Shown here one piece after another: positions 12,738 through 51,872 of a DNA stretch of 64,000 nt. Source of the stretch: Coriobacteriales bacterium (GTDB lineage Bacteria > Actinomycetota > Coriobacteriia > Coriobacteriales > CADBOM01); the NCBI GenBank assembly GCA_050946275.1, contig JBMNUM010000001.1, positions 92,690-156,689 on the forward strand, written 5' to 3'. Position numbers and translations under genes: made by a program. The notes below the pieces were generated by a model. That model saw only the letters and a list, made by a program, of their open reading frames with translations, did no database searches and had not been told where the DNA came from. Positions within the stretch are counted from its first letter, which is position 1, and each line of letters begins with the position of its first letter.

Positions 12738-12814
12738 TGGAACGCTCCCCGGGGGAGCGTTCCAACTGTTAACCGGCTGCAACTTGTGGAACGTTCCCCC
12801 GGGGAGCGTTCCAC
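12738..12814. promoter_or_regulatory. Two copies of a 27-29 bp palindrome, TGGAACGCTCCCC-G-GGGGAGCGTTCCA, centred 49 bp apart in the murJ / zinc-ribbon-operon divergent intergenic region.
   Basis: 12738-12764 is a perfect palindrome. 12786-12814 has one mismatch. A TATAAT hexamer at 12843-12848 lies downstream, toward the plus-strand operon. Confidence 0.6.
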
Positions 12815-12886
12815 TTCGCGCCCGCATTGCTCTCCATCTCGCTATAATCGTTGCAGGAAACACGGGTCGACGCGCGAGGAGGTGCC

Positions 12887-14501: not shown

Positions 14502-15476
14502 ATGTCGTCCGCGCGCCGCTCCACCGGCACCATCATCGGATCCGCCGTCGCCTTCCTCGTCGTTGTCGCCGCCATCTGCGTCTTCGGCTGGCTGTCCGTG
14601 CGGCTGTCGGACATCCCGGTCCGCCATGCATGGCTCGCGGCCACGGAAGCGACCGACCAGGTCGACTTCCTGGAGGCGAACGGGGGCAAGGCCCCTTACG
14701 AGGGACGGTACCGCTACCAGCAGCTCGACGAGGAGGGGAGGCGCCTGTACGAGGCGATCTACCGCAACCTCTACTTCATGCGCGGCGACGCGTTCATCTA
14801 CGGAGCCGACGCCGACGATGCGCTCGACACGTACTTCGACCTCTGGTACGACTCGCCTGAGATCTTCTACACGGCCGACAACGCCTCGGCGACGGAGAGC
14901 TCGGTCGAGACCCGCTTCGGCACGGGCCATCTCGAGACGCTCGTCCACTTCCACTACCTTTACGAGCGCGACCAGATCCCGGCCGTCGCAGAGCAGCTCG
15001 AGGGCGAGGTCGCGGCCATCATGGCCGGCGTGGGCGACGGCTGGAGCGAGGAGGAGAAGGCCGCGTACTTCCACGACGTGCTCATCGAGCGAGCCGACTA
15101 CTCCTACGATTCGGAGCGGGTCGCCACCACGCAGCCCGAGTTCTTCGAGAGCAGCACGGTGGCCGGTCCGCTGCTGCGCGGAGAGGCGATCTGCGGGGGC
15201 TACACGCAGGCACTCGAGCTCCTGTGCCGTCGGGCCGGTATCGACTGCTTCACGGTGATCGGCCGCGTCGACGAGGAGGAGGACCCCGAGACCATGCACG
15301 CCTGGAACGCCCTGAACATCGACGGCTCGTGGACGAACGTCGACACCACATGGGACGAGGCGCTCTCGCAGGCGGGCATGCCGTTCGAGTACCTGTTCGT
15401 GACCGGTGCCGAGCTGCTCGAGTCGGGCCACCACGCCAACGACAACGAGGTGCTCCCCGATGCCTGCCGCACCTAG
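14502..15476 (+). CDS. Membrane-anchored transglutaminase-like (papain-fold Cys-His-Asp) protein.
   Basis: N-terminal TM IIGSAVAFLVVVAAICVFGWL. The core reads GEAICGGYTQALELLCRRAGI...HAWNALNIDGSWTNVDTTWD. ATG lies 5 nt after the upstream stop. Confidence 0.8.
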   Translation: MSSARRSTGTIIGSAVAFLVVVAAICVFGWLSVRLSDIPVRHAWLAATEATDQVDFLEANGGKAPYEGRYRYQQLDEEGRRLYEAIYRNLYFMRGDAFIYGADADDALDTYFDLWYDSPEIFYTADNASATESSVETRFGTGHLETLVHFHYLYERDQIPAVAEQLEGEVAAIMAGVGDGWSEEEKAAYFHDVLIERADYSYDSERVATTQPEFFESSTVAGPLLRGEAICGGYTQALELLCRRAGIDCFTVIGRVDEEEDPETMHAWNALNIDGSWTNVDTTWDEALSQAGMPFEYLFVTGAELLESGHHANDNEVLPDACRT

Positions 15477-21245: not shown

Positions 21246-21740
21246 ATGGCAAGCACCGCGCGTGCATATGCACCAAGGCACCGCTACGAGGAGGTACCCG
21301 CCTCCCCGCAGTTCGAGGTGCACGCTGGGCAAGGCCGGAAGGCCGAGCATGCGCAGTACTCGCAGACGATGGCCATTTTCCGCATCGGGATGATCGTTCT
21401 GGCGCTGCTCGCGGCGATGGCCGTCGGCCGTCTGTGGCTCACGAACACCTCCATGGAGGTGCTCACGCAGACGAACTCCATCAACACGACCATCAAGGAG
21501 GCGCGCCTCACGGGCTCCGAGCTCGAGGTCCAGTACTCCGAGCTCACGAATCCCGCGAAGGTCAAGCTTTACGCGCAGTATCGCCTCGGCATGGGGCCCG
21601 CATACGGCGCGACGACATACGTCGACCTCACGCCGCAGTTCGCGAAGGAGGCGACGCCGCTCGTCGTGAACAGGGTGGTGGGAGCGCAGGCGCAGGTGGC
21701 CGCGCTGGAGCAGACACCGATGCAAGTGCAGTTGCAATGA
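21246..21740 (+). CDS. ftsL: FtsL-like cell division membrane protein.
   Basis: 164 aa. Single TM (IFRIGMIVLALLAAMAVGRLWL) followed by a coiled-coil-like stretch. Canonical position between rsmH and ftsI. Confidence 0.7.
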   Translation: MASTARAYAPRHRYEEVPASPQFEVHAGQGRKAEHAQYSQTMAIFRIGMIVLALLAAMAVGRLWLTNTSMEVLTQTNSINTTIKEARLTGSELEVQYSELTNPAKVKLYAQYRLGMGPAYGATTYVDLTPQFAKEATPLVVNRVVGAQAQVAALEQTPMQVQLQ

Positions 21741-33275: not shown

Positions 33276-34208
33276 ATGACCGATATCGATGCATTCACCG
33301 CGTTGCTGCAACGCAACGTTTCCAACGTATGGCCCGATGAGGTCATGGCGCGCCACACGGGCTTCCGCATCGGCGGGCAGGCGAAGCTCTACGTCGAGTG
33401 CGACACGATGGACGAGCTCGTGACGACCATCGAGGTCGCCGGGGAGTGCGGTCTGGACTGGACGATCCTCGGCAAGGGGACGAACGTCCTGATCGCCGAC
33501 GAGGGCTACGACGGCATCATCATCACGCTCGGACGCGAGTTCAAGCGCTACGAGGTGCTACGGGACGAGGAGACGGGCAGGCCGTACGCCATGGTGTGCG
33601 GAGCCGCCGTCGCGCTCGGGTCGCTCGTCCAGGAGGCCGTCAAGACCGGTTACTCCGGCTTCGAGTTCGCCGTGGGCATCCCGGGGTCGCTCGGCGGCGC
33701 CGTGCTCATGAACGCAGGCACCAAGGAGGCCACCATCGGCCAGGTCTGCCGCTCTATCGTGGTCTACCGGCCCGACACCGGCCTGCACCGCTACGCGGGC
33801 GACGAGCTGCCCTGGCACTACCGCTATTCCGGCCTTCCGCGCGGCGAGGTGGTCCTCGAGGCCGAGATCGCCATCGAGGAGGCCTCGACGTCCTTCATCC
33901 AGGCGAAGATGGAGGGCATCCTCAAGAGGCGCAGGAAGACGCAGCCCGTCGGCGTTCCCAACGCCGGGAGCATCTTCCGCAATCCGCCCGATGATTCGGC
34001 GGGCCGGCTCATCGAGGCCTGCGGGTTCAAGGGCAAGAGCGTTGGCGGAGCGCAGGTTTCCGAAACGCATGCAAACTTTATAATCAACACAGGGCATGCG
34101 ACCGCGCGCGACGTGGTCGTGCTCATGACCGAGATCCGCAAGCGGGTGAGGGAAGAATATGGCATCGAACTCAAACCGGAGATCAAATTCCTCGGTTTCG
34201 GGCAGTAG
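33276..34208 (+). CDS. murB: UDP-N-acetylenolpyruvoylglucosamine reductase.
   Basis: 310 aa. FAD-binding PCMH-type N-terminal domain (GKGTNVLIADEGYDG) and C-terminal GSIFRNP...GGAQVSETHANFIIN. Confidence 0.9.
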   Translation: MTDIDAFTALLQRNVSNVWPDEVMARHTGFRIGGQAKLYVECDTMDELVTTIEVAGECGLDWTILGKGTNVLIADEGYDGIIITLGREFKRYEVLRDEETGRPYAMVCGAAVALGSLVQEAVKTGYSGFEFAVGIPGSLGGAVLMNAGTKEATIGQVCRSIVVYRPDTGLHRYAGDELPWHYRYSGLPRGEVVLEAEIAIEEASTSFIQAKMEGILKRRRKTQPVGVPNAGSIFRNPPDDSAGRLIEACGFKGKSVGGAQVSETHANFIINTGHATARDVVVLMTEIRKRVREEYGIELKPEIKFLGFGQ

Positions 34209-35535
34209 GAACGGCGCGCACGCGAGGCCCTCGGGCCAGCGCGGTGCATCCGGCCGCGGTGCCGCGCCCGACCAGCGCGCCGGCTCGGCCCGCTCCCATG
34301 CGCGTCCCAAGATCCCGACGATCGAGGAGCCGGCTCCCCTCGAGACGGCTTCCGACGACATCGAGGTCGGCGGCGACCGTCGCGGGCGCCGCGGCCGGCG
34401 AGGCGGACGCGGGGGCAAGATCCGGGCCCTGCTCATCGTCATCGTCGTGCTGCTCGTCGCAGCCGGCGTCTCGTGGGGCGTGCTCGGCCACACGGACGTG
34501 TTCAAGATCACGTCCATCGACGTGAAGAACACCTCGCGCCTCTCCGACAACTACCTCACCGCCCTCGTCGACATCCCCGAGGGCACGAACCTCATGAACA
34601 TCGATACGAACGACGTGAAGGAGCGCCTCACCGCCAATCCGTGGATTGAGAAGGTCTCCGTGCACCGCTCGTACCCGCATACGCTCGTCCTCGACATCGA
34701 GGAGAACATGCCCACGGCCGTCGTGCAGGTCGATCCGGCGACGGCGATAGGCGCCACGGAATACTGGTTCATATCGGGTGACGGCATCTGGATGAGCCAG
34801 GTCTCGTCGACGGGCATCGAGCAGGCGCGCGAGGTCGTCATGGACTCCACGGGCTCCGAGGACCTCACCGCCGCCATCGAGGAGACGCCGGTGGTCGACG
34901 ATCCGCTCGTCGACACCGATGGCGACGGCGTACCCGATGCGGCGGCCGGCAGCGTCGACGAGGACGGCGACGGCATCGACGACAACACCGGCGAGCCGAT
35001 CGCCCAGACCACCACCGTCCACGAGGACGAGGACGGCGATGGCTACGATGACTACACGAACGAGTGGATCGGCGGCTCCGAGGAGGATTCCGACGACTCG
35101 GACGATTCGTCTGACGAGGCCGCGGATGAGAAGGCCGATGATGCCGCGAAGGAGAACGCGGGCGGCGAGCAGAGCGTGTGCGCCGATGCTTTCGTTACCG
35201 TCGAGGAGCTCGCGAAGATTCCCGTCGTGTCCGGCGTGGCCATCGGCGTGCAGCCCGAGACGGGCAAGCAGGAGACCGATGCCGGCGTGATCAACGCTCT
35301 CAACATCCTGGAGGGCGCCGATGAGGAGTTCCGCGCGCAGATCGCCTCCATCACCTCGGCCACGGGGGACAGCACCGACATCATGCTGAACAACGGCATC
35401 GAGGTGGCGTTCGGTCCGGCCACGGACATCCAGAGCAAGATCCGCATCGTCGAGCAGCTCATAGAGGAGCATCCCGATTCCATCGCCTACATCAACGTGC
35501 GCGTCGTCTCGCGCCCGTCGTGGAGGGGGTTCTAA
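34159..35535 (+). CDS. ftsQ: Cell division protein FtsQ (POTRA-containing) with a large acidic insertion.
   Basis: Basic N-terminus, TM (ALLIVIVVLLVAAGVSWGVL) and POTRA-like FKITSIDVKNTSRLSDNYLTALVDIPEGTNLMNID. Canonical position after murB. ATG 34159 would overlap murB by 50 nt, so the start is uncertain. Confidence 0.8.
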   Translation: MASNSNRRSNSSVSGSRNGAHARPSGQRGASGRGAAPDQRAGSARSHARPKIPTIEEPAPLETASDDIEVGGDRRGRRGRRGGRGGKIRALLIVIVVLLVAAGVSWGVLGHTDVFKITSIDVKNTSRLSDNYLTALVDIPEGTNLMNIDTNDVKERLTANPWIEKVSVHRSYPHTLVLDIEENMPTAVVQVDPATAIGATEYWFISGDGIWMSQVSSTGIEQAREVVMDSTGSEDLTAAIEETPVVDDPLVDTDGDGVPDAAAGSVDEDGDGIDDNTGEPIAQTTTVHEDEDGDGYDDYTNEWIGGSEEDSDDSDDSSDEAADEKADDAAKENAGGEQSVCADAFVTVEELAKIPVVSGVAIGVQPETGKQETDAGVINALNILEGADEEFRAQIASITSATGDSTDIMLNNGIEVAFGPATDIQSKIRIVEQLIEEHPDSIAYINVRVVSRPSWRGF

Positions 35536-35536
35536 C

Positions 35537-36505
35537 ATGGAGGACCGGCTCGTCCAGACCGTGAGGTGGACCGAGCAGGAGCATGCGCTGCTGCTGCCCG
35601 CAATCGATCCGGATGCGAGCAAATACTCCCGTGGCTCGGTGCTCGTGGCGGGAGGAAGTGCCCGCTACACGGGAGCGCCCGTGCTGGCGGCCCGTGCCGC
35701 GGCCCGTGCGGGTGCGGGCTACACGAGCCTGATGGTTCCCTCCGACATGGAGCAGGTCGCACGTGCCCATCTGCTCTCCATTCCCGTGATCGCCGCGCCG
35801 TGCATCGACGGCGCCTTCCGGCCCGGAGCCGCCACCTTGCCCGGTGAGCTGCTCGGGCACCTCGACGCGCTCGTCGCCGGGCCCGGCATGGGCGTGACAG
35901 ATGCCACGGCGGGCTTTATCACGCGTCTCCTCGACGGCTACGACGTGCCCGTCGTGCTCGACGCGGATGCGCTCAACGTGGTCGCGGGCCGCAATCCGAT
36001 TGCCCGCGGTACCGGACGTCCCGGGGATGCGTTCCGCTCGCTGCTGGCCCGCGGGAAGCGCGGCGCGACGACGATCCTCACGCCGCACGACGGCGAGCTC
36101 AAGCGTCTGCTCGCGGCATGCGGCGTCTCCGACGATGCGGCTGGCTCCGAGGAGGACCTCGATTCCGCTCGCTTGCGCAGGGCGGTTGCCGTCGCGGAGG
36201 CGACGGGCGCCGTCGTGGTCGCCAAGGGCAGGAGGACGCTCGTCGTGGAGGCAGGCCGTCCCGTGCTCGTCTCGGCGTACGCATCCGCCGTGCTCGCGAA
36301 GGCGGGGACGGGAGACGTGCTCTCGGGCATCATCGGCTCGCTGTGCGCGCAGGGTCTGCAGGGTTTCGAGGCCGCCGCGCTCGGCGTCTTCGTGCACGCC
36401 AAGGCGGGGGAGGAGACGCGCGCCCGACTCGGGATGCACGCCCCGATGGCGGAGGATGTCATCGACGGGATAGCCCCGGCCCTCAAGGCCCTCGAGGAGC
36501 TGTAA
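35537..36505 (+). CDS. nnrD: ADP/ATP-dependent NAD(P)H-hydrate dehydratase (YjeF C-terminal / carbohydrate-kinase-like domain).
   Basis: 322 aa. YSRGSVLVAGGSARYTGAPVLAARAAARAGAGY and AKAGTGDVLSGIIGSL motifs. Starts 2 nt after the ftsQ stop. Confidence 0.8.
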   Translation: MEDRLVQTVRWTEQEHALLLPAIDPDASKYSRGSVLVAGGSARYTGAPVLAARAAARAGAGYTSLMVPSDMEQVARAHLLSIPVIAAPCIDGAFRPGAATLPGELLGHLDALVAGPGMGVTDATAGFITRLLDGYDVPVVLDADALNVVAGRNPIARGTGRPGDAFRSLLARGKRGATTILTPHDGELKRLLAACGVSDDAAGSEEDLDSARLRRAVAVAEATGAVVVAKGRRTLVVEAGRPVLVSAYASAVLAKAGTGDVLSGIIGSLCAQGLQGFEAAALGVFVHAKAGEETRARLGMHAPMAEDVIDGIAPALKALEEL

Positions 36506-36517
36506 CCGGCGAAGAAC

Positions 36518-36542
36518 GAGTCAAAGGACTGTCCTTTGACTC
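36518..36542. terminator. Perfect 25-nt palindrome between convergent nnrD and the lipoprotein gene.
   Basis: GAGTCAAAGGAC-T-GTCCTTTGACTC, followed by ATTGTGG on the plus strand. Confidence 0.5.
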
Positions 36543-36587
36543 ATTGTGGCCGCATTACGGTTGGAAGCTTGTCTGCATCAAACGCTG

Positions 36588-38516
36588 CTACAAGATGTGC
36601 TTGTGGTTCTTCATCCATGAATACGTCTTCATGAAGTACGTGGTCTTGGCCTTCTTGGTCTTGGAGGCGTCCCAGGTGGTGTCGACGTAGTAGGTCTTGC
36701 CCTTGATGACGATCTTGTTCCACGCGTGCTCGTTGGCACGGCCCTTCGGCGTGGTCTTGCCCACGACGACCGTGCAGCTCAGGCCGACCTTGTTGCACAT
36801 GTCGCGGTAGAGCGTCGCGTAGCCGAGGCAGCGCGAGGACTTCTTCACGGCCGCGGCGTACGTGGTCCAGGAGAGGTCGGAGACGGGCTTGTAGTCGTAG
36901 CGGACGTTGGTGGCGATCCAATCGTGGATGTACCTCGCACGCTTGACCGGGTCCTTGATCCTCTTGGCCTTCTTGATGACGTTTTGCTGGACCTTGTTCT
37001 GCTGGGCCACCATCTTGGTGATGGTCGGCTTGTTGAAGGTGTAGCGGAAGAAGAGGCTCTTGGCCGGCGTCTGGGTCTTCGTCGTGGTGACCTTGCCCGT
37101 GACGGGGTCGATGGTCCTTCTCGTCGTCCGCAGCGCATCCGAGTAGACGAGCTTGACGTTTTGCGTGTAGCTGTCCGTGTACCTCTTGGGGGACTGCCCG
37201 CCCTGCCACAGCTGGTATGCCTTCTGGAGCGTGTCGTAGGAGAAGCAGAACCTCTCGACATCGACCCTCGCGGAGCACGCGCGGGCCACGTTGGTCATGA
37301 CCTGCACGGCCTTGTTGGGGTTGTTGTAGCGCGAGGTGACGTTGGAGAACGCGAATATCTGGGACTTGCCGCCGTTTTCGGCCCATAGCTGGACGTTGGT
37401 CTTGTTGGCGGTATTGCCGCCCTTGACGTCGATGGCCAGCTCATCGACGTCATATGCCTTGGTGTAGATGGGGACGATCTCGTAGTCCTTGCCGCTCCTC
37501 TGGATGATGAACTTCTGGGCGTTGGAGCCGTTTTGCTGGTAGAGGACGATGTTCGTGCCGTTCTTCGTGCCCGTGGCGTTGGCATGGAGGGCGAGGTTGC
37601 TCTTCATGTTGATGATCGTGTAGAGACCGCGCTCGTCGACCTTGAAATACCATGCCTGGGCATCGGAGTTGTTGGACTGGTGGATCTGGACGTTCGTGCC
37701 GTTCTTGACGCCGCCGCCGGCGGCCTCGAGCACCTTGCCCGTCGCGCAGTAGAGCCTGATGATGTAGACACCCGATTTGACGGGGGCGGCGTACACGCGC
37801 TCGGACACGTCGTATGCGGCCTGTCGCCTGGCCTCGGCTTCCGCCTCAGCCTTGGCCTTCGCCTCGGCCTCTGCGCGGGCCTTCGCCTCAGCTTCCACCC
37901 GCGCGGCCGCCTCTGCCTCTGCCCTTGCCTTCGCCTCCGCCTCCGCTGCGGCCTGAGCCTCGGCCTCGGCCGCTGCCTGCGCCTCCGCCTCGGCCAGCGC
38001 CGCCGCCTCGGCCTCGGCTGCCGCCGCGGCGTCCGCCTCGGCCTGGGCGGGATCGACCTCGCCCGCCACCTCGGCGTTCTCTGCGACGGTGTCATCGGTG
38101 CTCTGCGCCGTCTCGTCGCTGGCGGTCTGCGCATCGGCATCCTGCTGCTCGGGCACGGGCGTCTCGGCGGCCTGGCCCTCGTCAGGCGTCTCGGCGGGAG
38201 GAGTCGTCTCGGCGAGCTGGGTCTCGCCCGACGGGGTGGTCTCCGCAGGTGCCTCCGCACCTTCCTGGCTGGGCGGCCAGGGAGCGGGTTGCTGCTCGGT
38301 GGACTCGTCCTGGTCCGTGGTTCCCTCGAGATCGCCCGCGAGGGGCACGGAATCGTCCGTGATGGTGTCGGACGGCTGCTCCTGGGTGGCGCCGGGTCCG
38401 GGTGCGGGCTTCTCGGCGCTCGGAGCGCATGCGGTTGCGAGGAATGCGATATAGGCGACGCACAGGGCGGCGACGATCGCGGTGATGAGCCGTTTTCTCG
38501 TTTTAGCCCTTCTCAT
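36588..38516 (-). CDS. Predicted lipoprotein. Domains in order: disordered acidic region, Glu/Ala/Lys-rich helical repeat, ricin-type beta-trefoil lectin, transglutaminase-like domain.
   Basis: Signal peptide plus lipobox-like AFLATAC. (AEAEA[KQA]A[RA])n tract. QxW-type trefoil repeats (SDAQAWYF, SNAQKFII, GKSQIFAF). C-terminal SSRCLGYATLYRDMCNKVGL...HAWNKIVIKGKTYYVDTTWD. Confidence 0.8.
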   Translation of the reverse strand: MRRAKTRKRLITAIVAALCVAYIAFLATACAPSAEKPAPGPGATQEQPSDTITDDSVPLAGDLEGTTDQDESTEQQPAPWPPSQEGAEAPAETTPSGETQLAETTPPAETPDEGQAAETPVPEQQDADAQTASDETAQSTDDTVAENAEVAGEVDPAQAEADAAAAAEAEAAALAEAEAQAAAEAEAQAAAEAEAKARAEAEAAARVEAEAKARAEAEAKAKAEAEAEARRQAAYDVSERVYAAPVKSGVYIIRLYCATGKVLEAAGGGVKNGTNVQIHQSNNSDAQAWYFKVDERGLYTIINMKSNLALHANATGTKNGTNIVLYQQNGSNAQKFIIQRSGKDYEIVPIYTKAYDVDELAIDVKGGNTANKTNVQLWAENGGKSQIFAFSNVTSRYNNPNKAVQVMTNVARACSARVDVERFCFSYDTLQKAYQLWQGGQSPKRYTDSYTQNVKLVYSDALRTTRRTIDPVTGKVTTTKTQTPAKSLFFRYTFNKPTITKMVAQQNKVQQNVIKKAKRIKDPVKRARYIHDWIATNVRYDYKPVSDLSWTTYAAAVKKSSRCLGYATLYRDMCNKVGLSCTVVVGKTTPKGRANEHAWNKIVIKGKTYYVDTTWDASKTKKAKTTYFMKTYSWMKNHKHIL

Positions 38517-38696
38517 CGTCGTCCGTCCTCTCCGTCCGTGGTCGTGAAGGCAATATGTCTTGCGGCCAGGATGACTTCAGGGATGTCAACGTCTGCCTAC
38601 CATACGTATAGGCTATTTTACAACGTCATACAAACGCTTAGCGAAATTGGTTGGTTTGCGAGGATATTGGTCGTGGCGTGGCAGCGGTTGCCGGCC

Positions 38697-39137
38697 CTAA
38701 TCGTCGAAGTTCCAGAGGAACGTGCCCGTCTCGGCATCGCGCCTGCCGGTTATGGTCCCGCCCTGCACGGGGCGCAGGACGATCTCGGCCGTGTAGAGGA
38801 AGGTCGTCGCCTTGACGTGCCCGCCGATCATGCGGTGCTCGCCCTGCTCGACGTAGGAGAACTGCGCATGCGCGTGCTGGTGCATCTCGTTGCCATCGCC
38901 GGCGAACACGCTTCCGGTGATGGAGACCATCTCGAGCATGCCCTCGATGCGCTCGGTCCGGAAAGCCTGCTCGACGGGGTCGAAGACGGCGACCTCGACG
39001 CTGCTGCAGCCGCCGATGCCCGTATATGTCGCGCACGCGACGTTCTCCTCGCGGCAGATACGCAGGATTGACGAGAGGACCTCGTCCCCGCGGTCCATGC
39101 GGATGTAGTATGCGTCTCCCAGCTTGCGGTAGTCCAT
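38697..39137 (-). CDS. PPC (DUF296) domain protein.
   Basis: 146 aa from ATG 39137, after SD GAGGGGG. MDYRKLGDAYYIRMDRGDEVLSSILRICREENV...LEMVSITGSV...HAHAQF...GGHV pattern is typical of the bacterial PPC/DUF296 fold family. The ORF-track upstream extension is judged non-coding. Confidence 0.7.
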   Translation of the reverse strand: MDYRKLGDAYYIRMDRGDEVLSSILRICREENVACATYTGIGGCSSVEVAVFDPVEQAFRTERIEGMLEMVSITGSVFAGDGNEMHQHAHAQFSYVEQGEHRMIGGHVKATTFLYTAEIVLRPVQGGTITGRRDAETGTFLWNFDD

Positions 39138-39334
39138 GCGGAGCCCCCTCGCGTGTAGATGCCGTGCACGAGTCCATGGTACCGCATGGCGGAACGGGAG
39201 GGGGGCTGCCGATCGAGGTGGCGCCTCGGCCGGGATGCGCGATGTCCGCGACCTTTGGGACCCCAAATCGACCAATTCCGCAGCCGTCGACTCATCGGGC
39301 GGCAAGCTCATACAATTGCAACATGAGCAAATCC

Positions 39335-39359
39335 GGAACGCTCCCCGGGGGAGTGTTCC
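39335..39359. promoter_or_regulatory. Third copy of the GGAACGCTCCCC-G-GGGGAG(T/C)GTTCC palindrome.
   Basis: One mismatch. It lies between a TACAAT hexamer (39311-39316) and the SD AGGGGGG / ATG 39380 of the surface-protein gene, in the intergenic region divergent from the PPC gene. Confidence 0.55.
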
Positions 39360-39379
39360 ACGTTAGGGGGGTGGACGAT

Positions 39380-40489
39380 ATGACGAGAAGAACGAGCGTA
39401 TCCGGAAGGGCCGTTTCCCTTCTCGCCTCTGTTGCGCTGATGACGTCCATCGCCTTCCCGATTTCCGCTTATGCGGCCGATGGGGCCGAGGGCGCGGAGC
39501 AGGTTGCCCAGGGCATCGAGGCACCGGCCGCCGGGGACGTGACCTCCACGGATGCCGGCGCTGATGTTGCCGCGGGGAACGTGGTCGTGGACTCCGATGC
39601 CGTGGCTCCTGCGAATCCGGCGGCAACCCCCGCTGCGCCTGCAAGCGCCGTGGCTGACACCGAGATGGCGGGCATCGACGGTCCTTCGGCTGCGCCGATC
39701 CCCGATGCAGCCGTTGACGATGCGTCCGCTCCCGCGGTTGTCGATGACGTACGCGCCTCCCAGCCTGCAGCGCAGGACGTCGTCCGGGGATTTGCCCCCA
39801 TGGCGGCCGCAACCGTGAGCAGCGGCACGGGCGACGCGGGCCAGGGCACCCCATCCGAGGGTGCCGCCCAGACGTACTACTTCGCATTCGCCGATGCCAA
39901 GGGCAACGTTATCCTGGGCACGGACGGCAAGCCCCTGATCCAGAGCATCACGGTCGTCGATGGCGTCGCGCAGGGCAGCGAGGTCCTCGCGTCCGTCAAG
40001 GGCGCCGCCGAGATCTGGGAAGTCGATGCGAACGGGAACAGGCTCGCCGAGGGCACGCCGTTCGGCAAGATGATCATCGCCGAGGTCGCCGCGCTCCTCA
40101 CCGGCGCCGATGATGTCGAGCCGGGTGCCCCCACCCGCGTCATCAGCTCGCTCATGGTGGTCTCCGAGACCACCGACGCCGCGCCGCCCGCCTACGACGA
40201 TCCGGCCCCCGCGGCTCCGACCAGGTCCGCGGCGGTCTGGTCCACCCCGGCTGCATACGCTAGCCCCGTGGGAGCTTCGGCGACTACCGTCTCCGCCACA
40301 TCGCCGACCACCGCCCCGACGGTCGCCGAGGTCATCGACGACGCGGCGAACCCGCTCGCATCGGGCGTCCCCGCCGAATCGAACATGACCCATGCGGCCT
40401 GGTCCTACTGGCTGATCGTTCTCGGCATCCTGGCCGTGGCGATTCTCGCCGTCACCGTGATCCTGCCCAAGCGGCGCAGGGAGCAGTAG
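39380..40489 (+). CDS. Secreted Ala/Pro-rich protein with a C-terminal membrane anchor; function unknown.
   Basis: Signal peptide MTRRTSVSGRAVSLLASVALMTSIAFPISAYA. Low-complexity A/P/D/V region. Small central folded segment. C-terminal TM WLIVLGILAVAILAVTVIL followed by PKRRREQ. Confidence 0.7.
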   Translation: MTRRTSVSGRAVSLLASVALMTSIAFPISAYAADGAEGAEQVAQGIEAPAAGDVTSTDAGADVAAGNVVVDSDAVAPANPAATPAAPASAVADTEMAGIDGPSAAPIPDAAVDDASAPAVVDDVRASQPAAQDVVRGFAPMAAATVSSGTGDAGQGTPSEGAAQTYYFAFADAKGNVILGTDGKPLIQSITVVDGVAQGSEVLASVKGAAEIWEVDANGNRLAEGTPFGKMIIAEVAALLTGADDVEPGAPTRVISSLMVVSETTDAAPPAYDDPAPAAPTRSAAVWSTPAAYASPVGASATTVSATSPTTAPTVAEVIDDAANPLASGVPAESNMTHAAWSYWLIVLGILAVAILAVTVILPKRRREQ

Positions 40490-40746
40490 GGTCGGGTATG
40501 CCGGGCGTGCTCGCGGCGTGGCCCCACCTGCCCAGTTACTAGGGCCTTGGCGGCGCAATGCCCCGACACGCGTGCATCGCTCGCTTGCCAGTCGGCGCCT
40601 GCGCCGGCACACCTACACCGCTCGTTTACCGGGCGCAGCTCGCGTCGGCGCACGCGCATCGTGCATGTTCCGGACGGCACGTCGACGACAGCTTGGCAAC
40701 TTCGTTCGAAAAAGAGCGTCTCATCCGGGTCAAATGGCTCGATTCT

Positions 40747-40801
40747 GGCAATTCCTAACGAAAAAGGGCGTGTGAAACGCCCTTTTTCGTTAGGAATTGC
40801 C
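40747..40801. terminator. Long perfect hairpin between the convergent surface-protein and MFS genes; second copy of the element X hairpin.
   Basis: GGCAATTCCTAACGAAAAAGGGCGT-gtgaa-ACGCCCTTTTTCGTTAGGAATTGCC. The stem is 25 bp, with T-runs inside the arms on both strands. Confidence 0.6.
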
Positions 40802-40859
40802 AAGAGGTCGCCATGCTGGAGCATCCCTGGCACGGCGGTGTCGGGTCGGGAGAGGACCC

Positions 40860-42203
40860 CTACTCCTTCACCTCGTCCGTCGTCTCCGCGAGCGAGCGAC
40901 CCTTCGTCTCCTGACCTATCACGGCCATGACGATCGCGACGATTGCGAACGCTGCAGTCAGCACGATGAACACTGCGGTGAATCCCACCTGCTCGCCGAA
41001 CATGCTGTAGACGACCGGCACGATGAACGGGGCGATGAACGCGCCGATGCGGCCGAATGCGGCGGCCCAGCCGGTACCCGATCCTCGCACGTCGGTGGGG
41101 TAGACCTCGGGGGTGTAGGAGTACACGCAGCCCCATGCGCCGAGCGCGAAGAAGTACAGCAGGCAGCCCGCGGCGAGGATGGCGCCCTCGCTACCGGCAT
41201 GGCCGAACAGCCACGCGGCGAGCGCCGTTCCCGCGAAGTAGATGATGAGCACGGGCTTGCGGCCGATCTTCTCGATGAGATACGCGGCGCTGAAGTAGCC
41301 GGGCAGCTGCGCGATGCACATGATCACGGTGAAGCCGAAGCTGCGCACCATGTCGAAGCCCTGGCCCATGAGCAGCGACGGCGTCCACAGCACGAATCCG
41401 TAGTAGCCGAAGTTGATGCCGAACCAGATGACCCACAGCACGATGGTCGAGCGGAGATGCGGCTTCTGCCAGAGCTTCGCGAAGGCGGTGCCGCGCTTGG
41501 TCGGGGGCACCAGCGCCGTCTTGTCCTCGTCGGCAACGGTGACGCCGGCCTGCGACTCCATCTTGGAGACGATGGCCTCGGCCTCGTCGTGCCTGCCGGC
41601 CAGCTCGAGGTAGCGCGGCGACTCGGGCACGGAGCGCCTCAGCACGGCCGCGAAGAACGCGGGGATGGCGCCCACGAAGAATGCGATGCGCCAGCCGTAG
41701 ACCGGGATGAGCAGGTACGCGACGAGCGCGGCGACGATCCATCCCCAGGCCCAGAAGCTCTCGAGGATGACGACGTTGCGGCCGCGCGACTTGAGCGGCG
41801 AGAACTCGCTGACGAGCGTCGAGGCCGCCGGCAGCTCGCCGCCAAGCCCGAAGCCCGTGACGAAGCGGCAGATGACGAGCATCACGTAGTTCGCCGATAG
41901 GCCGCACAGCAGGCTGCCCACGCTGTAGAACAGCAGCGTGACGAGGATGACGTTGCGGCGTCCCCATTTGTCGGACATGATGCCCGAGAGCGCGGCGCCT
42001 ATGATCATGCCGAACGTGCCGGCGCTGGCGAGGATGGAGCCGTCGAGCGGGGTGAGGGCCCAGCTCTGGCCGACGGCCGCGAGCACGCCGCTGACCATGC
42101 CCTGGTCCATGGCGTCGAACAGCCAGCCGATGCCCACGAGGAAGAGAATCTTGCGCATCATGGGCGTCATGGGGAGAGCTTCGAGGCGCTCCGAGATATT
42201 CAT
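40860..42203 (-). CDS. Major facilitator superfamily transporter (12 TM, sugar-porter/metabolite:H+ symporter-like).
   Basis: About 447 aa from MNISERLE (ATG 42203). GWLFDAMDQGMVS, SDKWGRR and PESPRYL motifs are typical of MFS sugar-porter-like proteins. Confidence 0.85.
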   Translation of the reverse strand: MNISERLEALPMTPMMRKILFLVGIGWLFDAMDQGMVSGVLAAVGQSWALTPLDGSILASAGTFGMIIGAALSGIMSDKWGRRNVILVTLLFYSVGSLLCGLSANYVMLVICRFVTGFGLGGELPAASTLVSEFSPLKSRGRNVVILESFWAWGWIVAALVAYLLIPVYGWRIAFFVGAIPAFFAAVLRRSVPESPRYLELAGRHDEAEAIVSKMESQAGVTVADEDKTALVPPTKRGTAFAKLWQKPHLRSTIVLWVIWFGINFGYYGFVLWTPSLLMGQGFDMVRSFGFTVIMCIAQLPGYFSAAYLIEKIGRKPVLIIYFAGTALAAWLFGHAGSEGAILAAGCLLYFFALGAWGCVYSYTPEVYPTDVRGSGTGWAAAFGRIGAFIAPFIVPVVYSMFGEQVGFTAVFIVLTAAFAIVAIVMAVIGQETKGRSLAETTDEVKE

Positions 42204-42653
42204 GTTCTTGTTCCTTTGTTTGATTGGTGGGATATAGGAGCCCATCCGGCCCTTACATCGTGTTGTCTCCAGTCATGCTAGCCGAAAGTGGCTGATTATC
42301 GGGGGACGTATGGCGTCAAGGGCGCTATGCGGGAGGTTCGCGGCCATCGCGCGCGGCGGGCGGTTCCGCTCGGCCGGTGCGCGGCGGGCCCGGATGCGGG
42401 ATGGGGTGTGGCAAGCACGGCGAGCGCCATTGTCGCGTCGACTGCTCCTGCTCCGCGGCGGGCCCGGCCCGAGAGGCTCCCTTTTGCACCACCTCGCATG
42501 CGATGCAGGTGCAATCCGTGTGGTTTTCGTCGTTTATGGTAATTATTTCCTCTCACCCGGCATATTGATGTAAAATCGGGGAGATTGAACGCAAGCGGAT
42601 GCTTACGCTTCACAGATGAAACACGCAATGCAAACACTACGAAAGGTGAGAAG

Positions 42654-43757
42654 ATGCTTGAACCGACCGCGATGGATCATCTTGCAGTTATCAAGGTTGT
42701 CGGCGTCGGAGGCGGCGGCACCAACGCTGTGAACAGGATGGTCGAGGCAGGCATAAAGGGCGTCGAGTTCATCGCCGTCAACACCGACCGTCAGGCGCTG
42801 CTCATGTCCGATGCCGACCAGACGGTCCATATCGGCGAGGATTACACGCGCGGCCTCGGCGCCGGCGGCAACCCCGAGATCGGCGCACGTGCCGCCGAGG
42901 AGTCCCGCAACGAGATCAGGGATGCCCTTGCGGGCGCCGACATGATCTTCGTCACGGCTGGCGAGGGCGGTGGAACCGGTACCGGTGCCGCTCCCGTGGT
43001 CGCCGAGATCGCCCGCGACGAGATTGGCGCGCTGACCGTGGCCGTCGTCACGAAGCCGTTCGGCTTCGAGGGCCGCAAGCGCTCTCAGCAGGCCGAGGAG
43101 GGCATCGACGTCCTCTCCGACAAGGCCGACACGCTCATCACGATTCCCAATGACCGCCTCCTGCAGGTCATCGAGAAGAAGACGACGATGCTCGACGCGT
43201 TCCGCATCGCCGACGACATCCTGCGCCAGGGCGTGCAGGGCATCACGGACCTCATCACGATCCCGGGTCTCATCAACCTCGACTTCGCGGACGTGCGCAC
43301 GGTCATGAAGGATGCCGGCTCGGCCATGATGGGCATCGGCGTCGCGTCCGGCGAGAACAGGGCCATCGAGGCCGCCAGCCAGGCGGTGTCGAGCAAGCTG
43401 CTCGAGTCCTCCGTCGTGGGCGCCCGCCGCATCCTCGTCTCCGTCGCCGGCGCGAGCGACATGGGTCTCGTCGAGGTCTCCGATGCCGCGAGCACGGTCA
43501 CCGAGGCGGCCGATCCCGAGGCGACGATCATCTTCGGTTCCGTCATCGACGACAGCCTCGACGATCAGATCCGCGTCACCGTCATCGCGACGGGCTTCTC
43601 GGATGTCGCCCCGCAGGGCAGCTTCGACTTCGCGAACGACCTCTCGCAGGCGCGCCAGCCGCAGCCGGTCGCCTACGCTGAGCCCGAGGCCGCGCCCGGC
43701 TCGCCGTCCATCTTCGACGAGGACTTCATTCCCGACTTCCTCAAGAAGGACTTCTAA
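42654..43757 (+). CDS. ftsZ: Cell division GTPase FtsZ.
   Basis: ATG after [28 protein letters not shown] and [11 protein letters not shown] tubulin signature. C-terminal DFIPDFLKK peptide. Confidence 0.95.
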
Positions 43758-48413: not shown

Positions 48414-48768
48414 CCGGAGCGGGCCGGGCGGCCGCGCCATGGGTTGGTCCCATGGTGAGGAAAGTCCGGGCTCCACAGGGCAGGATGCCAGCTAACGGCT
48501 GGGCGGGGCGACCCGACGGAAAGTGCCACAGAAAAGGAAACTCCCCTGTACCTTCGGGTGCGGGAGAAAAGCTGAAAAGGTGCGGTAAGAGCGCACCAGC
48601 GTCGCGGTAACGCGGCGGCTTGGCAAACCCCATCCGGAGCAAGGGCAAATAGGGGTGCTATGCGCTGGCCCGGCGTGCATCCGGGTTGCCTGCTAGAGCT
48701 GTCCGGCGACGGGCAGTCGAGATAAATGACCGCACACGACAGAACCCGGCTTACAGGCCCGCTCCGGT
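48414..48768 (+). ncRNA. rnpB: RNase P RNA, bacterial type A.
   Basis: Universally conserved GAGGAAAGTCCGGGCTCCACAGGGCA and ACAGAACCCGGCTTA blocks. The 5' CCGGAGCGGGCC pairs with the 3' GGCCCGCTCCGG (P1). Confidence 0.92.
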
Positions 48769-48782
48769 TCATCATCTTCGCG

Positions 48783-49199: not shown

Positions 49200-49276
49200 T
49201 GGTAGCCCGTGCGGGATTCGAACCCGCGATCTCCGCCTTGAGAGGGCGGTGTCCTAAACCGCTAGACGAACGGGCC
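49200..49276 (-). tRNA. tRNA-Glu (anticodon CTC).
   Basis: Manual cloverleaf: GGCCCGT acceptor (G1-U72), anticodon arm CCGCC-CTCTCAA-GGCGG, T-arm GCGGG-TTCGAAT-CCCGC, encoded CCA. Confidence 0.85.
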
Positions 49277-49293
49277 ATTCACAGTTGCTCTAA

Positions 49294-49367
49294 TGGCTGG
49301 GGTGGAAGGAGTCGAACCCTCACTGACGGAACCAGAATCCGCTGTCCTACCATTAGACGACACCCCA
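49294..49367 (-). tRNA. tRNA-Gln (anticodon CTG).
   Basis: Manual cloverleaf: acceptor TGGGGTG/CACCCCA, anticodon loop TTCTGGT, T-loop TTCGACT, encoded CCA. Confidence 0.85.
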
Positions 49368-49414
49368 GTGCAGAGAGCAGATCGAGCACTCGGTGCCCTG
49401 CAAATGCAAGAGAG

Positions 49415-49443
49415 ATATTACAGAAGGGCGCGGACGTTGGCAA
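49415..49443 (-). promoter_or_regulatory. Sigma-70-type promoter of the tRNA-Gln/Glu operon.
   Basis: Minus strand: TTGCCA, 17-nt spacer, TAATAT, about 45 nt upstream of the tRNA-Gln 5' end. Confidence 0.65.
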
Positions 49444-49488
49444 GTGTGAATTTCAAATTGACCGTTCACGAACGACGAGCGGAAACTG

Positions 49489-49696
49489 AGGGGCTTACTG
49501 ACCCCGCTTGCGGCGAGAGCAATCAGCAAACCCGCATTTCGACCTCCCAGGTGGGGTTTGCTGACCGCGTTCGGGGTCCCGGCAATCAGTAAACCCGCAT
49601 TTCGACCCCTCATGTGGGGTTTGCTGACCGCTGGGAGAGCGACTGCAGTCAGCAAACCCGCATTCCGGCCTCCCGTGTGGGGTTTGCTGATTGCGC
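49489..49696. repeat. Family-B tandem hairpin repeat array, about 3.5 units.
   Basis: The same unit as at 48783-49047. It abuts family-A copy 3, mirroring the A+B arrangement at 18970-19524. Confidence 0.85.
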
Positions 49697-49743
49697 TTAT
49701 GGCGGGCGACAGAGTATGGCCGCCGGGCTAGGTCTCGTCCGTC

Positions 49744-50029
49744 TGTCCGGAAATGCGGGGATGTCGAAAACAGGGGCGCCCGTGCACGTTTCCACGGCCC
49801 GCCTGTCCCAAATTGCGGGGTTGTCGAAAGCGGATCCCTCCCGCCTGTCCGGAAATGCGGGGTTGTCGAAAAATCTTGCCCGAAAACGCGGGGATGTCGA
49901 ATAATCCGGAGCGCCCCGCTTTCGACATCCCCGCATTTTGGGACACGGGAGGGAGTTTTCCTTGCAAGGCGGGTCTGGTTTTCGACAAACCCGCAATTTC
50001 GGGCCCTCGCGTGGGGCTTGCTGATTGCG
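49744..50029. repeat. Family-A nested-palindrome element, copy 3 (inverted relative to copy 2), ending in an A/B hybrid unit.
   Basis: Four forward and two reverse half-sites. Its reverse complement aligns at about 90% identity to 18970-19227. The last unit joins TTTCGACAAACCCGCAATTTCGGG to GTGGGGCTTGCTGATTGCG. Confidence 0.85.
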
Positions 50030-50032
50030 TTC

Positions 50033-50100
50033 GGGAAAAACGCCCCTGCGTTGGGGCGTTGTCTTTGAGGTGGCGCGCCCTGGGGTTCGAGCGCCCGGAG
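50033..50100 (-). repeat. Direct duplicate of the tRNA-Arg 3' end plus its terminator, with a decayed T-arm.
   Basis: 50033-50082 matches 50166-50220 almost base for base (apart from a 5-nt indel) across the terminator hairpin plus TGGCGCGCCCTG. The following GGGGTTCGAGCGCCCGG resembles AGGGATTCGAACCCCCGG of the tRNA, but no acceptor 5' strand is present. Confidence 0.7.
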
Positions 50101-50167
50101 AACGTGCCGGCTTTAGCCGGCCCAGGGGCCGGAGGCCAGGTGCGAATCCCTCCGCGGGGATGTTCGG

Positions 50168-50198
50168 GAAAAGAAAAACGCCCCTGCGTTGGGGCGTT
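50168..50198 (-). terminator. Rho-independent terminator of tRNA-Arg.
   Basis: The minus strand reads AACGCCCC-AACGCA-GGGGCGTT followed by TTTCTTTTCCC. Confidence 0.75.
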
Positions 50199-50208
50199 GT
50201 CTTTGAGG

Positions 50209-50285
50209 TGGCGCGCCCTGAGGGATTCGAACCCCCGGCGTTCTGATTCGTAGTCAGACCCTCTATCCAGCTGAGGTAAGGGCGC
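50209..50285 (-). tRNA. tRNA-Arg (anticodon ACG).
   Basis: Manual cloverleaf: acceptor GCGCCCT/AGGGCGC, anticodon arm TCTGA-CTACGAA-TCAGA, T-arm GGGGG-TTCGAAT-CCCTC, discriminator G, encoded CCA. Confidence 0.9.
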
Positions 50286-50297
50286 GTGCAGGAAATT

Positions 50298-50326
50298 ATT
50301 TTTGCACCAGCGTGGTCCTATGTCAA
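50298..50326 (-). promoter_or_regulatory. Sigma-70-type promoter of tRNA-Arg.
   Basis: Minus strand: TTGACA, 17-nt spacer, AAAAAT, about 12 nt upstream of the tRNA 5' end. Confidence 0.55.
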
Positions 50327-50599
50327 ATGCATTCGCCGAGCGGACGGTGACCGGTTTGCGGATCGTGCAGGGCAACGCATGACCGAGGGGCGGCTGCGCG
50401 TGCGCCGCGGCGGCTCGCAGGCCTGCTCGCAGGTCGTCCGGGCCCGACGACGCACGGTTGGGGGATGGGAGCGGCGGCTCGCATGCATGCTCGCAGGCCG
50501 CATGGGTGCGGCAAGACGCTGGCGGGGAGGGGCGAGGGTGGGTCCACCTCGACGACTCACAAGCCTGCTCGCAGGCCGCGTTCGCGCGCAGCCGGACCG

Positions 50600-51709
50600 C
50601 TAGTCTCGCCTCACGTGCTTGCCGTGAGCGCTCTCGGAGGCATCCGGTTCTCCCATGGGGGCGAGCAGGAGCTCGTCCTCCACGTGCACGGCCGCGGGGT
50701 TCTTCGAGCTGATGATCGACTGCCTCATCTCCACGAGGCGCTCGCCCTTGGCGCCCGGATCCTTCTTGTGGGCGCGGTCCGTGTGGTGGCTCTTGTGCGC
50801 ACCCTCGGTCTTGAGCCTCGAAAGGTTGCGCAAGTAGAGCTGCTGCAGGCCGATGATCGCCATCGACGCGACGGCACCCAGGACGCCCATGTAGATGTGG
50901 ATCGTCCCCGGGAAGACGAACGACAGCCCGAGGCTCAGCACGAGCAGCACCGCCGTCGTTATGAAGGCGCCCTTCAGCTTCCACCTTATCTCGAATATCT
51001 GCACGATGAGGGCGAATCCCATCGCGTAGTAAACAGCGATCTTGTGCAGGTGGACGTCGATGCCCTCGCAGAACAGCACGACTCCGATGATGACGATGAA
51101 GCACAGCGCGAGGATCTTCACACCCGAATTGCGGTTGATGAACTCCGAGATGGGGTTCGCGAAGATGATCATGATGGCCACGGCGATCATGACGGCCGCG
51201 ATCATGATGGGCAGGTCGTTGACCATGCCCACGGCGGTGATGACGGAGTCGAGCGAGAAGATGATGTCCATCACCATGATGAGCGCGACTGCATGCACGA
51301 GCCCGATATGGCGCATCTCGCCGCCGGATTCCGCATGGCGCTCCTCCTCCAGCCCGATCTTGCCGACGAGCTCGCGGATGCCCTTGTACACGAGGTAGAT
51401 ACCACCCGCGAGCATGATGATGTCGCGCGCGGTGATCTGAGCCATGTCGCCCTCGAGGAACTCGAGCGTGAGCAGGGGCGTGTGCAGCGACGCGAGCCAC
51501 GAGATCATGCACAGCAGCACGATGCGCATGCACAGCGCGCCGACGAGTCCCGCCCGGCGCCCGAGCGACTTGCGGTGGTCGGGGAGGCGGTCGGTGGTGA
51601 TGGCGATGAAGACGAGGTTGTCGATGCCGAGCACGAGCTCGAGGAACGTGAGCGTTGCGAGCTCGACCCATGCCTGGGGCGTCGAGAATATCGCGAGCGC
51701 ATCGAGCAT
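50600..51709 (-). CDS. TerC-family integral membrane protein.
   Basis: ELVLGIDNLVFIAI and FSLDSVITAVGM TerC signature repeats. Start chosen at MLDALAIF (ATG 51709). The basic/His-rich C-terminal tail is probably cytoplasmic. Confidence 0.85.
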   Translation of the reverse strand: MLDALAIFSTPQAWVELATLTFLELVLGIDNLVFIAITTDRLPDHRKSLGRRAGLVGALCMRIVLLCMISWLASLHTPLLTLEFLEGDMAQITARDIIMLAGGIYLVYKGIRELVGKIGLEEERHAESGGEMRHIGLVHAVALIMVMDIIFSLDSVITAVGMVNDLPIMIAAVMIAVAIMIIFANPISEFINRNSGVKILALCFIVIIGVVLFCEGIDVHLHKIAVYYAMGFALIVQIFEIRWKLKGAFITTAVLLVLSLGLSFVFPGTIHIYMGVLGAVASMAIIGLQQLYLRNLSRLKTEGAHKSHHTDRAHKKDPGAKGERLVEMRQSIISSKNPAAVHVEDELLLAPMGEPDASESAHGKHVRRD

Positions 51710-51741
51710 CGTATGAGCATCCTCCGTGATCCGCGGCGGCC

Positions 51742-51774
51742 ACAAAAAACAAACGGCGCCTCGAGGGGCGCCGT
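51742..51774 (-). terminator. Rho-independent terminator of tRNA-Leu.
   Basis: The minus strand reads ACGGCGCC-CCTCGA-GGCGCCGT followed by TTGTTTTTTGTG. Confidence 0.75.
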
Positions 51775-51785
51775 GAAGTTCACGA

Positions 51786-51872
51786 TGGTGCGGGTGAAAG
51801 GACTTGAACCTTCATGGGGTTGCCCCCATACGGACCTGAACCGTACGCGTCTGCCAATTCCGCCACACCCGC
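51786..51872 (-). tRNA. tRNA-Leu (anticodon CAG), long variable arm.
   Basis: Manual cloverleaf: acceptor GCGGGTG/CACCCGC, anticodon arm TACGG-TTCAGGT-CCGTA, variable arm stem-loop (ATGGGG-GCAA-CCCCAT), T-loop TTCAAGT, encoded CCA. Confidence 0.9.

Follow-up and report, generated by a model that had tools for sequence, protein, structure and literature searches.

Gene content of the ftsQ-ftsZ interval

The dcw cluster (for cell division and the cell wall) of an uncultured, gut-type Coriobacteriales bacterium is interrupted between ftsQ and ftsZ by a block of genes, and the origin of this block is the subject of the present analysis. The window, that is, the whole stretch of 64,000 nucleotides (nt) that was analysed, comes from a metagenome-assembled genome (MAG) labelled 'Coriobacteriales bacterium' by NCBI (proteins MGI6220362-66), with 66% guanine plus cytosine (GC). 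The upstream dcw genes were verified as mraZ-rsmH-(ftsL)-ftsI-murE-murF-mraY-murD-ftsW-murG-murC-murB; the open reading frame (ORF) at the ftsL position, 21246-21740, gave no Pfam match. On both sides of the block, the canonical genes stand in canonical order, all on the plus strand. One usual feature of the cluster, ftsQ directly before (ftsA-)ftsZ, fails here, with 7.1 kb and five genes between the two.

An earlier reading of the same DNA (the original prediction) had placed the end of ftsQ at 35535 and the start of ftsZ at 42654, with five genes and two strong hairpins in between, and all of these were confirmed. The gene map was rechecked by six-frame ORFs, by the phase of GC at third codon positions (GC3), and by Pfam and NCBIfam domain searches, and the calls agree with the earlier ones. 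The features are as follows, the layers being those into which the block is divided further below.

33276-34208 (+): murB
34159-35535 (+): ftsQ, with Pfam POTRA_1 and FtsQ_DivIB_C; the canonical gene that closes the upstream dcw unit, which runs from mraZ (19695) to ftsQ
35537-36505 (+): nnrD, with YjeF_C/Carb_kinase (Pfam) and TIGR00196; the C-terminal domain of NAD(P)HX dehydratase only; layer 1
36518-36542: hairpin with an 11-bp perfect stem and a 3-nt loop, between the convergent nnrD and ricTG
36588-38516 (-): lipoprotein gene (ricTG), with an Ala/Glu-rich coil, two RicinB_lectin_2 domains and Transglut_core (Pfam); layer 3
38615-38622 (-): second copy of TGTAAAAT, -10-like, 99 nt upstream of the ricTG start on its coding strand
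38697-39137 (-): PCC/DUF296 (PPC-domain) protein, Pfam PF03479; layer 2
39287-39316 (+): promoter-like site TCGACT-18-TACAAT upstream of the surface-protein gene, from a promoter scan
39335-39359: perfect palindrome GGAACGCTCCCCGGGGGAGTGTTCC, 25 nt, 20 nt before the surface-protein gene
39380-40489 (+): Ala/Pro-rich surface protein with a signal peptide and a C-terminal transmembrane (TM) anchor; layer 3
40746-40802: hairpin with 26-nt perfect arms and a 5-nt loop, between the surface-protein and transporter genes
40860-42203 (-): major facilitator superfamily (MFS) transporter of an aromatic-acid/H+ symporter-like family (Pfam and NCBIfam), divergent from ftsZ; layer 2
42517-42653 (+): candidate ftsZ control region, with TGTAAAAT at 42569-42576, a leader of ~70 nt and a putative ribosome-binding site AAAGGTGAG at 42642-42650
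42654-43757 (+): ftsZ, with Pfam Tubulin and FtsZ_C; head of the downstream unit ftsZ-pgeF-yggS-sepF-proC-yggT-divIVA-yggU

In the window, where the junction was checked, nnrD is translationally coupled to ftsQ; the two meet as TAA-c-ATG, with a gap of 1 nt. The transglutaminase-like core of the ricTG lipoprotein is of the cysteine-protease type according to Pfam, and the NCBI name 'TolA' for this protein derives from its low-complexity coil. A Pfam search of the Ala/Pro-rich surface protein returned no domain. The MFS start at 42203 is backed by alignment to the orthologue P0001. By exact-sequence look-up, FtsZ of the window found no match, while NnrD and PCC matched the same genome only.

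Gene order before ftsZ in Coriobacteriia

The synteny survey was made with FtsZ as the query and one genome per species; it gave 80 loci (L numbers) with 10-kb flanks, onto which the window proteins were mapped. In fifteen Coriobacteriia loci (L009-L016, L019, L020, L022-L025, L027, L031), ftsQ lies directly before ftsZ, with a spacer of ~150-820 nt, in most cases 150-530. The order murC-(murB)-ftsQ-nnrD-ftsZ was found in six sister loci, namely L001 (Senegalimassilia sp.), L002, L004, L005, L006 and L038. Their FtsZ is 81-94% identical to that of the window, their nnrD-ftsZ spacer measures 89-472 nt, and none of the lectin, PCC, surface-protein and MFS genes lies between nnrD and ftsZ in them. 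An SDR gene stands between ftsQ and ftsZ in L017/L018; in other loci, what comes directly before ftsZ encodes a membrane protein with DUF2339 (L007), a transporter of the ABC type (L008) or CmpB-type proteins (L037). Since other Coriobacteriales MAGs have different genes directly upstream of ftsZ, the junction is repeatedly permissive; it was opened several times independently in Coriobacteriia.

The contigs of congeners were found via close homologues of the MFS protein, which is 88-95% identical in them and occupies the same site. In L083 (MFS 94%, FtsZ 98% and MurB 95% identical to the window), the order is ftsQ-nnrD-[ricTG<-178 aa<-1045-aa beta-helix surface protein<-PCC<-MFS]-ftsZ, where aa stands for amino acids; the cargo is on one strand, divergent from ftsZ. 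Shorter contigs from related samples (L084-L087) hold the ftsZ|MFS-PCC end of this arrangement. The lineages L092/L096 and L094/L095 have ftsQ-nnrD-[PCC<-MFS]-ftsZ only, with the stops of nnrD and PCC 11-14 nt apart. In L083, L092 and L094-L096, PCC comes 10-11 nt past the MFS stop, with orthologues 66-75% identical.

Outside the genus, all the lineages sampled are without MFS-PCC at the ftsQ-ftsZ site. The genes around the MFS homologues of L088, L089-L091 and L093, which are 80-84% identical, are unrelated ones, and among 80 metagenome loci with homologues at 62-78% identity, none has ftsZ, ftsQ, nnrD or PCC within 10 kb. This metagenome scan served as a negative control; it recovered no further congeners and did not polarise the rearrangement described below. 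A neighbour-joining tree of 1633 concatenated protein columns gave (window,(L096,(L094,L083))), with a support of 296/300 for the inner clade. The p-distance is 0.34-0.39 to the sister lineages, against 0.04-0.14 within the genus.

A stand-alone YjeF_C gene was also observed right after ftsQ across the clade (L001, L002, L004, L005, L006, L038, L083, L092, L094-L096). We know of no described link between NAD(P)HX dehydratase, an enzyme of metabolite repair, and the dcw operon.

Proposed stepwise assembly of the islet

The original prediction had treated the five genes as one cargo. The comparative data give three layers instead of a single 7-kb insertion. Layer 1 is nnrD, which is clade-wide, being present in the six sister lineages and in the window's genus. 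Layer 2 is the MFS/PCC pair between nnrD and ftsZ, found in each of the four congeneric lineages that were recovered and nowhere else. Layer 3 is a variable module of ricTG and the surface protein, present in the window and L083 and not in L096 and L094. When the six sister-lineage loci and the L092 contig were tested, none of them gave a match to the ricTG protein, and no such gene was called in L094/L095/L096. The outgroup comparison makes the gain of layers 1 and 2 the parsimonious course. An insertion and a fixed alternative architecture had been put forward earlier as two possibilities; the insertion reading stands, and both are true at different depths. As for an ancestral arrangement, which would show as the same five genes between ftsQ and ftsZ in related genera with native composition, the composition is indeed native, and the five-gene set is absent from the sister lineages.

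The nnrD/ricTG junction is homologous in the window and L083, with a continuous DNA alignment and a related hairpin at the same place, and layer 3 is therefore assigned a single origin. It would have been followed by either two losses or exchange among congeners through the conserved flanks. A 9-nt match seen by eye between the nnrD-PCC spacer of L094 and the nnrD-ricTG spacer of L083 was judged too weak and was left unused. Between the window and the three congener lineages, identity is 66-75% for PCC, 70% for ricTG (L083 only, over 410 aa), 75-79% for FtsQ and 80-81% for NnrD. The cargo has diverged about as much as fast-evolving core genes have, which fits vertical descent within the genus.

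In the window itself, layer 3 has been rearranged. PCC is parted from MFS by the surface gene and the long hairpin, whereas the two are adjacent in every congener. The Ala/Pro-rich protein is homologous to the 1045-aa beta-helix surface protein of L083, but it is short and its gene is inverted. The two match at 56% over 86 aa by BLASTP, along with a matching signal peptide, and at 39% over 234 aa by tblastn, with the C-terminal anchor included; the DNA match is in the opposite orientation, and the window protein is without the beta-helix repeats. A single inversion turning the L083 gene order into that of the window could not be derived.

It can be held with good confidence that the ftsQ-ftsZ gap is a small chromosomal islet of native composition, built stepwise at an insertion-tolerant site with a pre-existing ftsZ promoter. 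In the first step, nnrD would have been added behind ftsQ, and then translationally coupled to it, in an ancestor of the Senegalimassilia-related clade. In the second, placed in the ancestor of the genus, the MFS/PCC pair would have entered the space between nnrD and the ftsZ promoter, on the other strand and reading away from ftsZ. In the third, the secreted-protein module would have joined between PCC and nnrD, later to be lost or exchanged among congeners; in the window, the surface gene would have been shortened and inverted, PCC parted from MFS and a new long hairpin placed at the junction, the order of these events being a reconstruction. The insertions would have fallen between the nnrD stop and the ftsZ promoter, which would be older than steps 2 and 3 and was apparently left intact. 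The reason proposed for the tolerance of the site to insertions is that ftsZ has a proximal promoter of its own, from which it is transcribed.

Alternatively, the block may be ancestral to the wider clade, the sister lineages and short-form congeners having deleted it and the window having kept the old state. Within the genus, layer 3 does occur in the window, the member that branches off first, and in L083, with a homologous nnrD/ricTG junction, and not in L096 and L094; two losses of an ancestral module explain this layer at least as well as two gains do. For layers 1 and 2, however, the outgroups point the opposite way: nnrD stands directly before ftsZ in all six sister lineages, as does ftsQ in the fifteen more distant loci, and the more distant MFS homologues (80+) are all elsewhere. 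Many independent clean deletions would be required, and such a history is unlikely.

The putative control region of ftsZ

The non-coding stretch of ~450 nt before ftsZ, described earlier as partly AT-rich, is real; its AT-rich part is confined to the last ~135 nt. Between the MFS start and this conserved block lies a GC-rich, non-coding segment of ~250 nt (42212-42462), which is found in this genome only, the MFS-ftsZ spacer of L083, L092, L094 and L096 being 194 nt long without it. The segment has no excess structure (z = 0.25) and no Rfam, Pfam or repeat signal. A riboswitch or structured leader was considered and dropped, with this value for the spacer and z = -0.15 for the ftsZ leader against shuffles.

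Five congener assemblies (four lineages) show hardly any variation over the last ~135 nt before ftsZ. Over the 140 nt upstream of ftsZ, identity between species is 0.86-0.96, against 0.76-0.82 at the four-fold sites of ftsZ; since codon bias raises identity at such sites, the comparison is a conservative one. The -10-like TGTAAAAT lies 78 nt before the ftsZ start codon. In 64 kb, this octamer has only two copies, each in the right orientation upstream of a gene, one before ftsZ and one before the lipoprotein gene. It or a close variant was found at a similar distance to ftsZ in the islet-free L002, L038, L005 and L004, which are four of the five sister lineages whose upstream region could be read. 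In more distant Coriobacteriia, other -10-like elements (TGTATACT, TTGACA...TAGAAT and others) lie at a similar distance from the start codon.

As the motif is also present in sister lineages without the islet, ftsZ very probably had its own putative promoter before layers 2 and 3 arrived. The proposal that ftsZ relies on a promoter of its own within 42204-42653 is well supported by this conservation, and the predicted element can be placed at 42517-42653. The companion proposal, that an insertion uncoupled ftsZ from the upstream genes, probably does not hold, since a TGTAAAAT-type motif occurs in those four sister lineages, where nnrD is directly before ftsZ. The islet very probably left the mode of ftsZ expression unchanged. 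The same 42517-42653 block probably also holds a divergent MFS promoter, with AATAAT on the minus strand near 42543-42548.

In the actinobacteria studied, several promoters belonging to ftsZ itself within the ftsQ-ftsZ region are described as the rule; PMC6683498 covers M. tuberculosis, S. coelicolor, S. griseus and C. glutamicum, and PMC3139271 covers M. smegmatis. The operator of FtsR, a MerR-type regulator, is a 25-bp inverted repeat of the AACCCTAAAGTAAAGGTTGAGGGTA type that many Actinobacteria conserve (PMC6683498); it had no core match with up to 3 mismatches in the whole window.

Two further observations were made by eye. In the distant 'Actinomycetota' MAGs L028-L030, FtsR-operator-like sequences (for example AAACTCTAAAGTGATGGTTTAAGAATGG) lie 80-110 nt upstream of ftsZ; the window's clade is without them, which suggests that the sampled Coriobacteriales lost FtsR control or never had it. 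In L009-L018 (mostly labelled 'Coriobacteriaceae'), a stem-loop is located in the leader, ~30-60 nt upstream of ftsZ. Its arms vary by species yet stay complementary (for example GGAGATT/AATCTCC vs GGAATCC/GGATTCC), and it may be a conserved structure of the 5' untranslated region.

Hairpins and proposed transcription units

Against shuffled controls, the hairpin at 36518-36542 has z = -4.0 to -4.2, with values of about -4 on both strands, and its counterpart in L083 is a related GTCAA...TTGAC hairpin at the same position. It is likely a bidirectional terminator closing the upstream dcw unit. The hairpin at 40746-40802 scores z = -10.9 to -11.9, and its core, A5-GGGCG-loop-CGCCC-T5, is of the classical bidirectional form inside a longer stem; it, too, is likely a bidirectional terminator, at a junction specific to the window. 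It was not found in the congeners, where PCC directly follows MFS. Both hairpins are single-copy within the window, and a scan for the intrinsic-terminator consensus called neither. The Rfam matches to the long hairpin at E<=1 were of miRNA type only and were dismissed as generic hairpin hits; at the gathering threshold, Rfam gave nothing within the islet.

Five transcription units can be proposed for the locus. The first would run from mraZ to nnrD and stop at the hairpin at 36518-36542. The second would be MFS, read from the conserved divergent block, and the third the surface-protein gene, read from the site at 39287-39316, both stopping at the hairpin at 40746-40802. The fourth would comprise PCC and, farther downstream on that strand and preceded by a TGTAAAAT of its own, ricTG, and would stop at 36518-36542. 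The fifth would take ftsZ through yggU from 42569-42576.

The description of the cargo as 'envelope-related' holds for the location of three products, and no evidence of any link between the cargo and cell division was found; such a functional link is taken to be absent. It may still be argued that the placement is functional, with MFS/PCC, and perhaps the surface module, co-regulated with ftsZ via the bidirectional region, which would link division with uptake or with remodelling of the envelope. In every congener, MFS and ftsZ are read away from each other, purifying selection acts on the ~135-nt block that separates them, and their candidate -10 elements are only ~25 nt apart. Nevertheless, no cargo domain has a known role in division, the MFS homologues of all other taxa sit in unrelated contexts, an additional 250 nt separating MFS from the block is tolerated in the window, and the ftsZ motif is present also where the MFS gene is absent. 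Co-regulation of this kind is accordingly quite unlikely. A bolder form would make the nnrD|ftsZ junction a selected 'landing pad', where a strongly conserved back-to-back region would drive ftsZ and a divergent transporter/PCC operon and tie uptake (in some species, lectin/transglutaminase display) to the division cycle. Little credence is given to it; if it were true, the islet would be a lineage-specific functional extension of the dcw cluster and not a neutral accretion.

Composition and the question of mobility

A block with mixed gene orientation, surface-protein cargo and hairpins at its internal boundaries could also be a recently acquired mobile genomic island, brought by an integrative element, a transposon or a phage from a foreign donor. 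The MFS family, moreover, is unusually well conserved between domains of life, being 66-70% identical to proteins of Methanomassiliicoccales archaea and Desulfitobacterium and 76-84% identical in other gut Coriobacteriia, which suggests past lateral spread of this family among gut anaerobes; the gene context of an archaeal homologue (L097) gave no clue to the substrate.

The comparison of GC, GC3 and codon adaptation between the block and its flanks, which the original prediction had put forward as a check, was run, and the composition proved native. Regional GC is 0.63-0.67, with a window mean of ~0.66. The cargo has GC3 of 0.82-0.93 and the core 0.84-0.95; the codon adaptation index is 0.61-0.77 for the cargo and 0.66-0.85 for the core, approximate values as the reference set held a wrong-frame ftsW ORF and a doubtful rsmH frame, with a small effect on the comparison. 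Every ORF was accounted for, and no integrase, recombinase or transposase domain was detected in the genes of the block or in the spacer ORFs. When 35000-43500 was searched for repeats, neither direct nor inverted ones turned up at the ends of the block. No tRNA target adjoins the block, the nearest tRNA gene being at 49.2 kb. Plasmid and phage collections returned generic MFS and low-complexity matches only. Neither a pseudogene nor a transposase remnant was seen, the ORFs in the non-coding stretches being without domain match. With the block, in addition, common to four congeneric lineages at genome-typical divergence, recent capture from a foreign donor is very improbable.

That the arrangement is an assembly or binning artefact is practically negligible as an explanation: the source is a MAG (a 202,523-nt contig) and short-read contigs end exactly at the 36518-36542 palindrome, but the two Logan contigs (L081 and L082), which match the window at 100% identity, have an overlap of 29 nt that lies at the palindrome and only there, the nnrD/ricTG junction is reproduced independently in the congener metagenome assembly L083, and the MFS/ftsZ junction in the congener assemblies L083-L087, L092 and L094-L096.

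The islet among known systems

Conservation of the dcw cluster, along with occasional splits, is said to have been described in a broad survey by Megrian and colleagues in Nat Microbiol in 2022. Compared with the canonical actinobacterial cluster (mraZ-rsmH-ftsL-ftsI-murE-murF-mraY-murD-ftsW-murG-murC-ftsQ-ftsZ, then pgeF/yfiH-yggS-sepF-yggT-divIVA), the window keeps every gene, its order and its strand. It adds murB and nnrD, as well as 6.1 kb with four unrelated genes, three of them on the opposite strand, between nnrD and ftsZ. Conserved flanks, presence/absence polymorphism, internal rearrangement and native composition are shared with the flexible genomic islands that carry surface-protein genes; the islet differs from them in being very small, in lying inside the dcw cluster and in having MFS-PCC, and not the surface-protein gene, as its fixed core. 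Integrase-borne islands are alike only as accessory blocks that interrupt a conserved operon-like cluster, the window being without integrase, att repeats, an adjacent tRNA target or a compositional shift. A conserved, proximal, promoter-like element and a leader directly upstream of ftsZ are shared with the autonomous ftsZ promoters of actinobacteria, in line with the rule that most ftsZ expression comes from promoters of its own (PMC6683498, PMC3139271), although the window has one candidate element and the FtsR operator is absent.

Several points weigh against the stepwise history with a pre-existing promoter. A generic sigma-70 scan found no two-hexamer promoter before ftsZ, and the candidate consists of a -10 element and an adjacent TG only. 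The divergent MFS promoter could account for part of the conservation of the 135-nt block, and the promoter and terminator activities are read from sequence and conservation; the hairpin at 36518-36542 is, besides, without a U-tract. The distribution of layer 3 on the inferred tree needs two losses or transfer between congeners, and the available genomes give no direction to the window's rearrangement. The relatives are metagenome contigs or MAGs throughout, and some of their taxon labels are unreliable.

With these points taken into account, the locus is a case of ordinary but neatly layered gene-order drift, largely vertically inherited and not a single recent insertion. It leaves the current understanding of cell division unchanged. 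Its value lies in a natural series of five architectures at one junction, where a cluster that ranks among the most conserved in bacteria was opened without harm just upstream of a promoter that would already have freed the downstream gene. It also offers a caveat for annotation, as ftsZ is not always beside ftsQ in Coriobacteriia, and, for a gut lineage that has been little studied, a candidate ftsZ promoter.

Other features of the window

The 25-nt palindrome upstream of the surface-protein gene (GGAACGCTCCCCGGGGGAGYGTTCC) occurs three times in the window, at 39335-39359, 12739-12763 and 12788-12812, where none is expected by chance, and is absent from all the relatives fetched. Upstream of a TATAAT at 12843-12848 stand the two tandem copies, which also precede the gene for a zinc-ribbon/TM protein (12887-14497); after this gene comes a second transglutaminase-like one, at 14502-15476. 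The palindrome has the look of an operator, and it may mark out a small regulon of surface and transglutaminase genes.

FtsQ of the window carries a long acidic insertion at residues ~230-350, between its POTRA and C-terminal domains. This segment has repeated DxDGDG motifs (DTDGDGVPD, DEDGDGIDD), which resemble calcium-binding thrombospondin-type-3 repeats, and it aligns poorly to, or is missing in, several sister lineages.

Directly downstream of the division cluster lies an RNase P RNA of class A (48416-48769; 304 bits), after which four tRNA genes (Glu, Gln, Arg and Leu) follow on the minus strand at 49200-51872.

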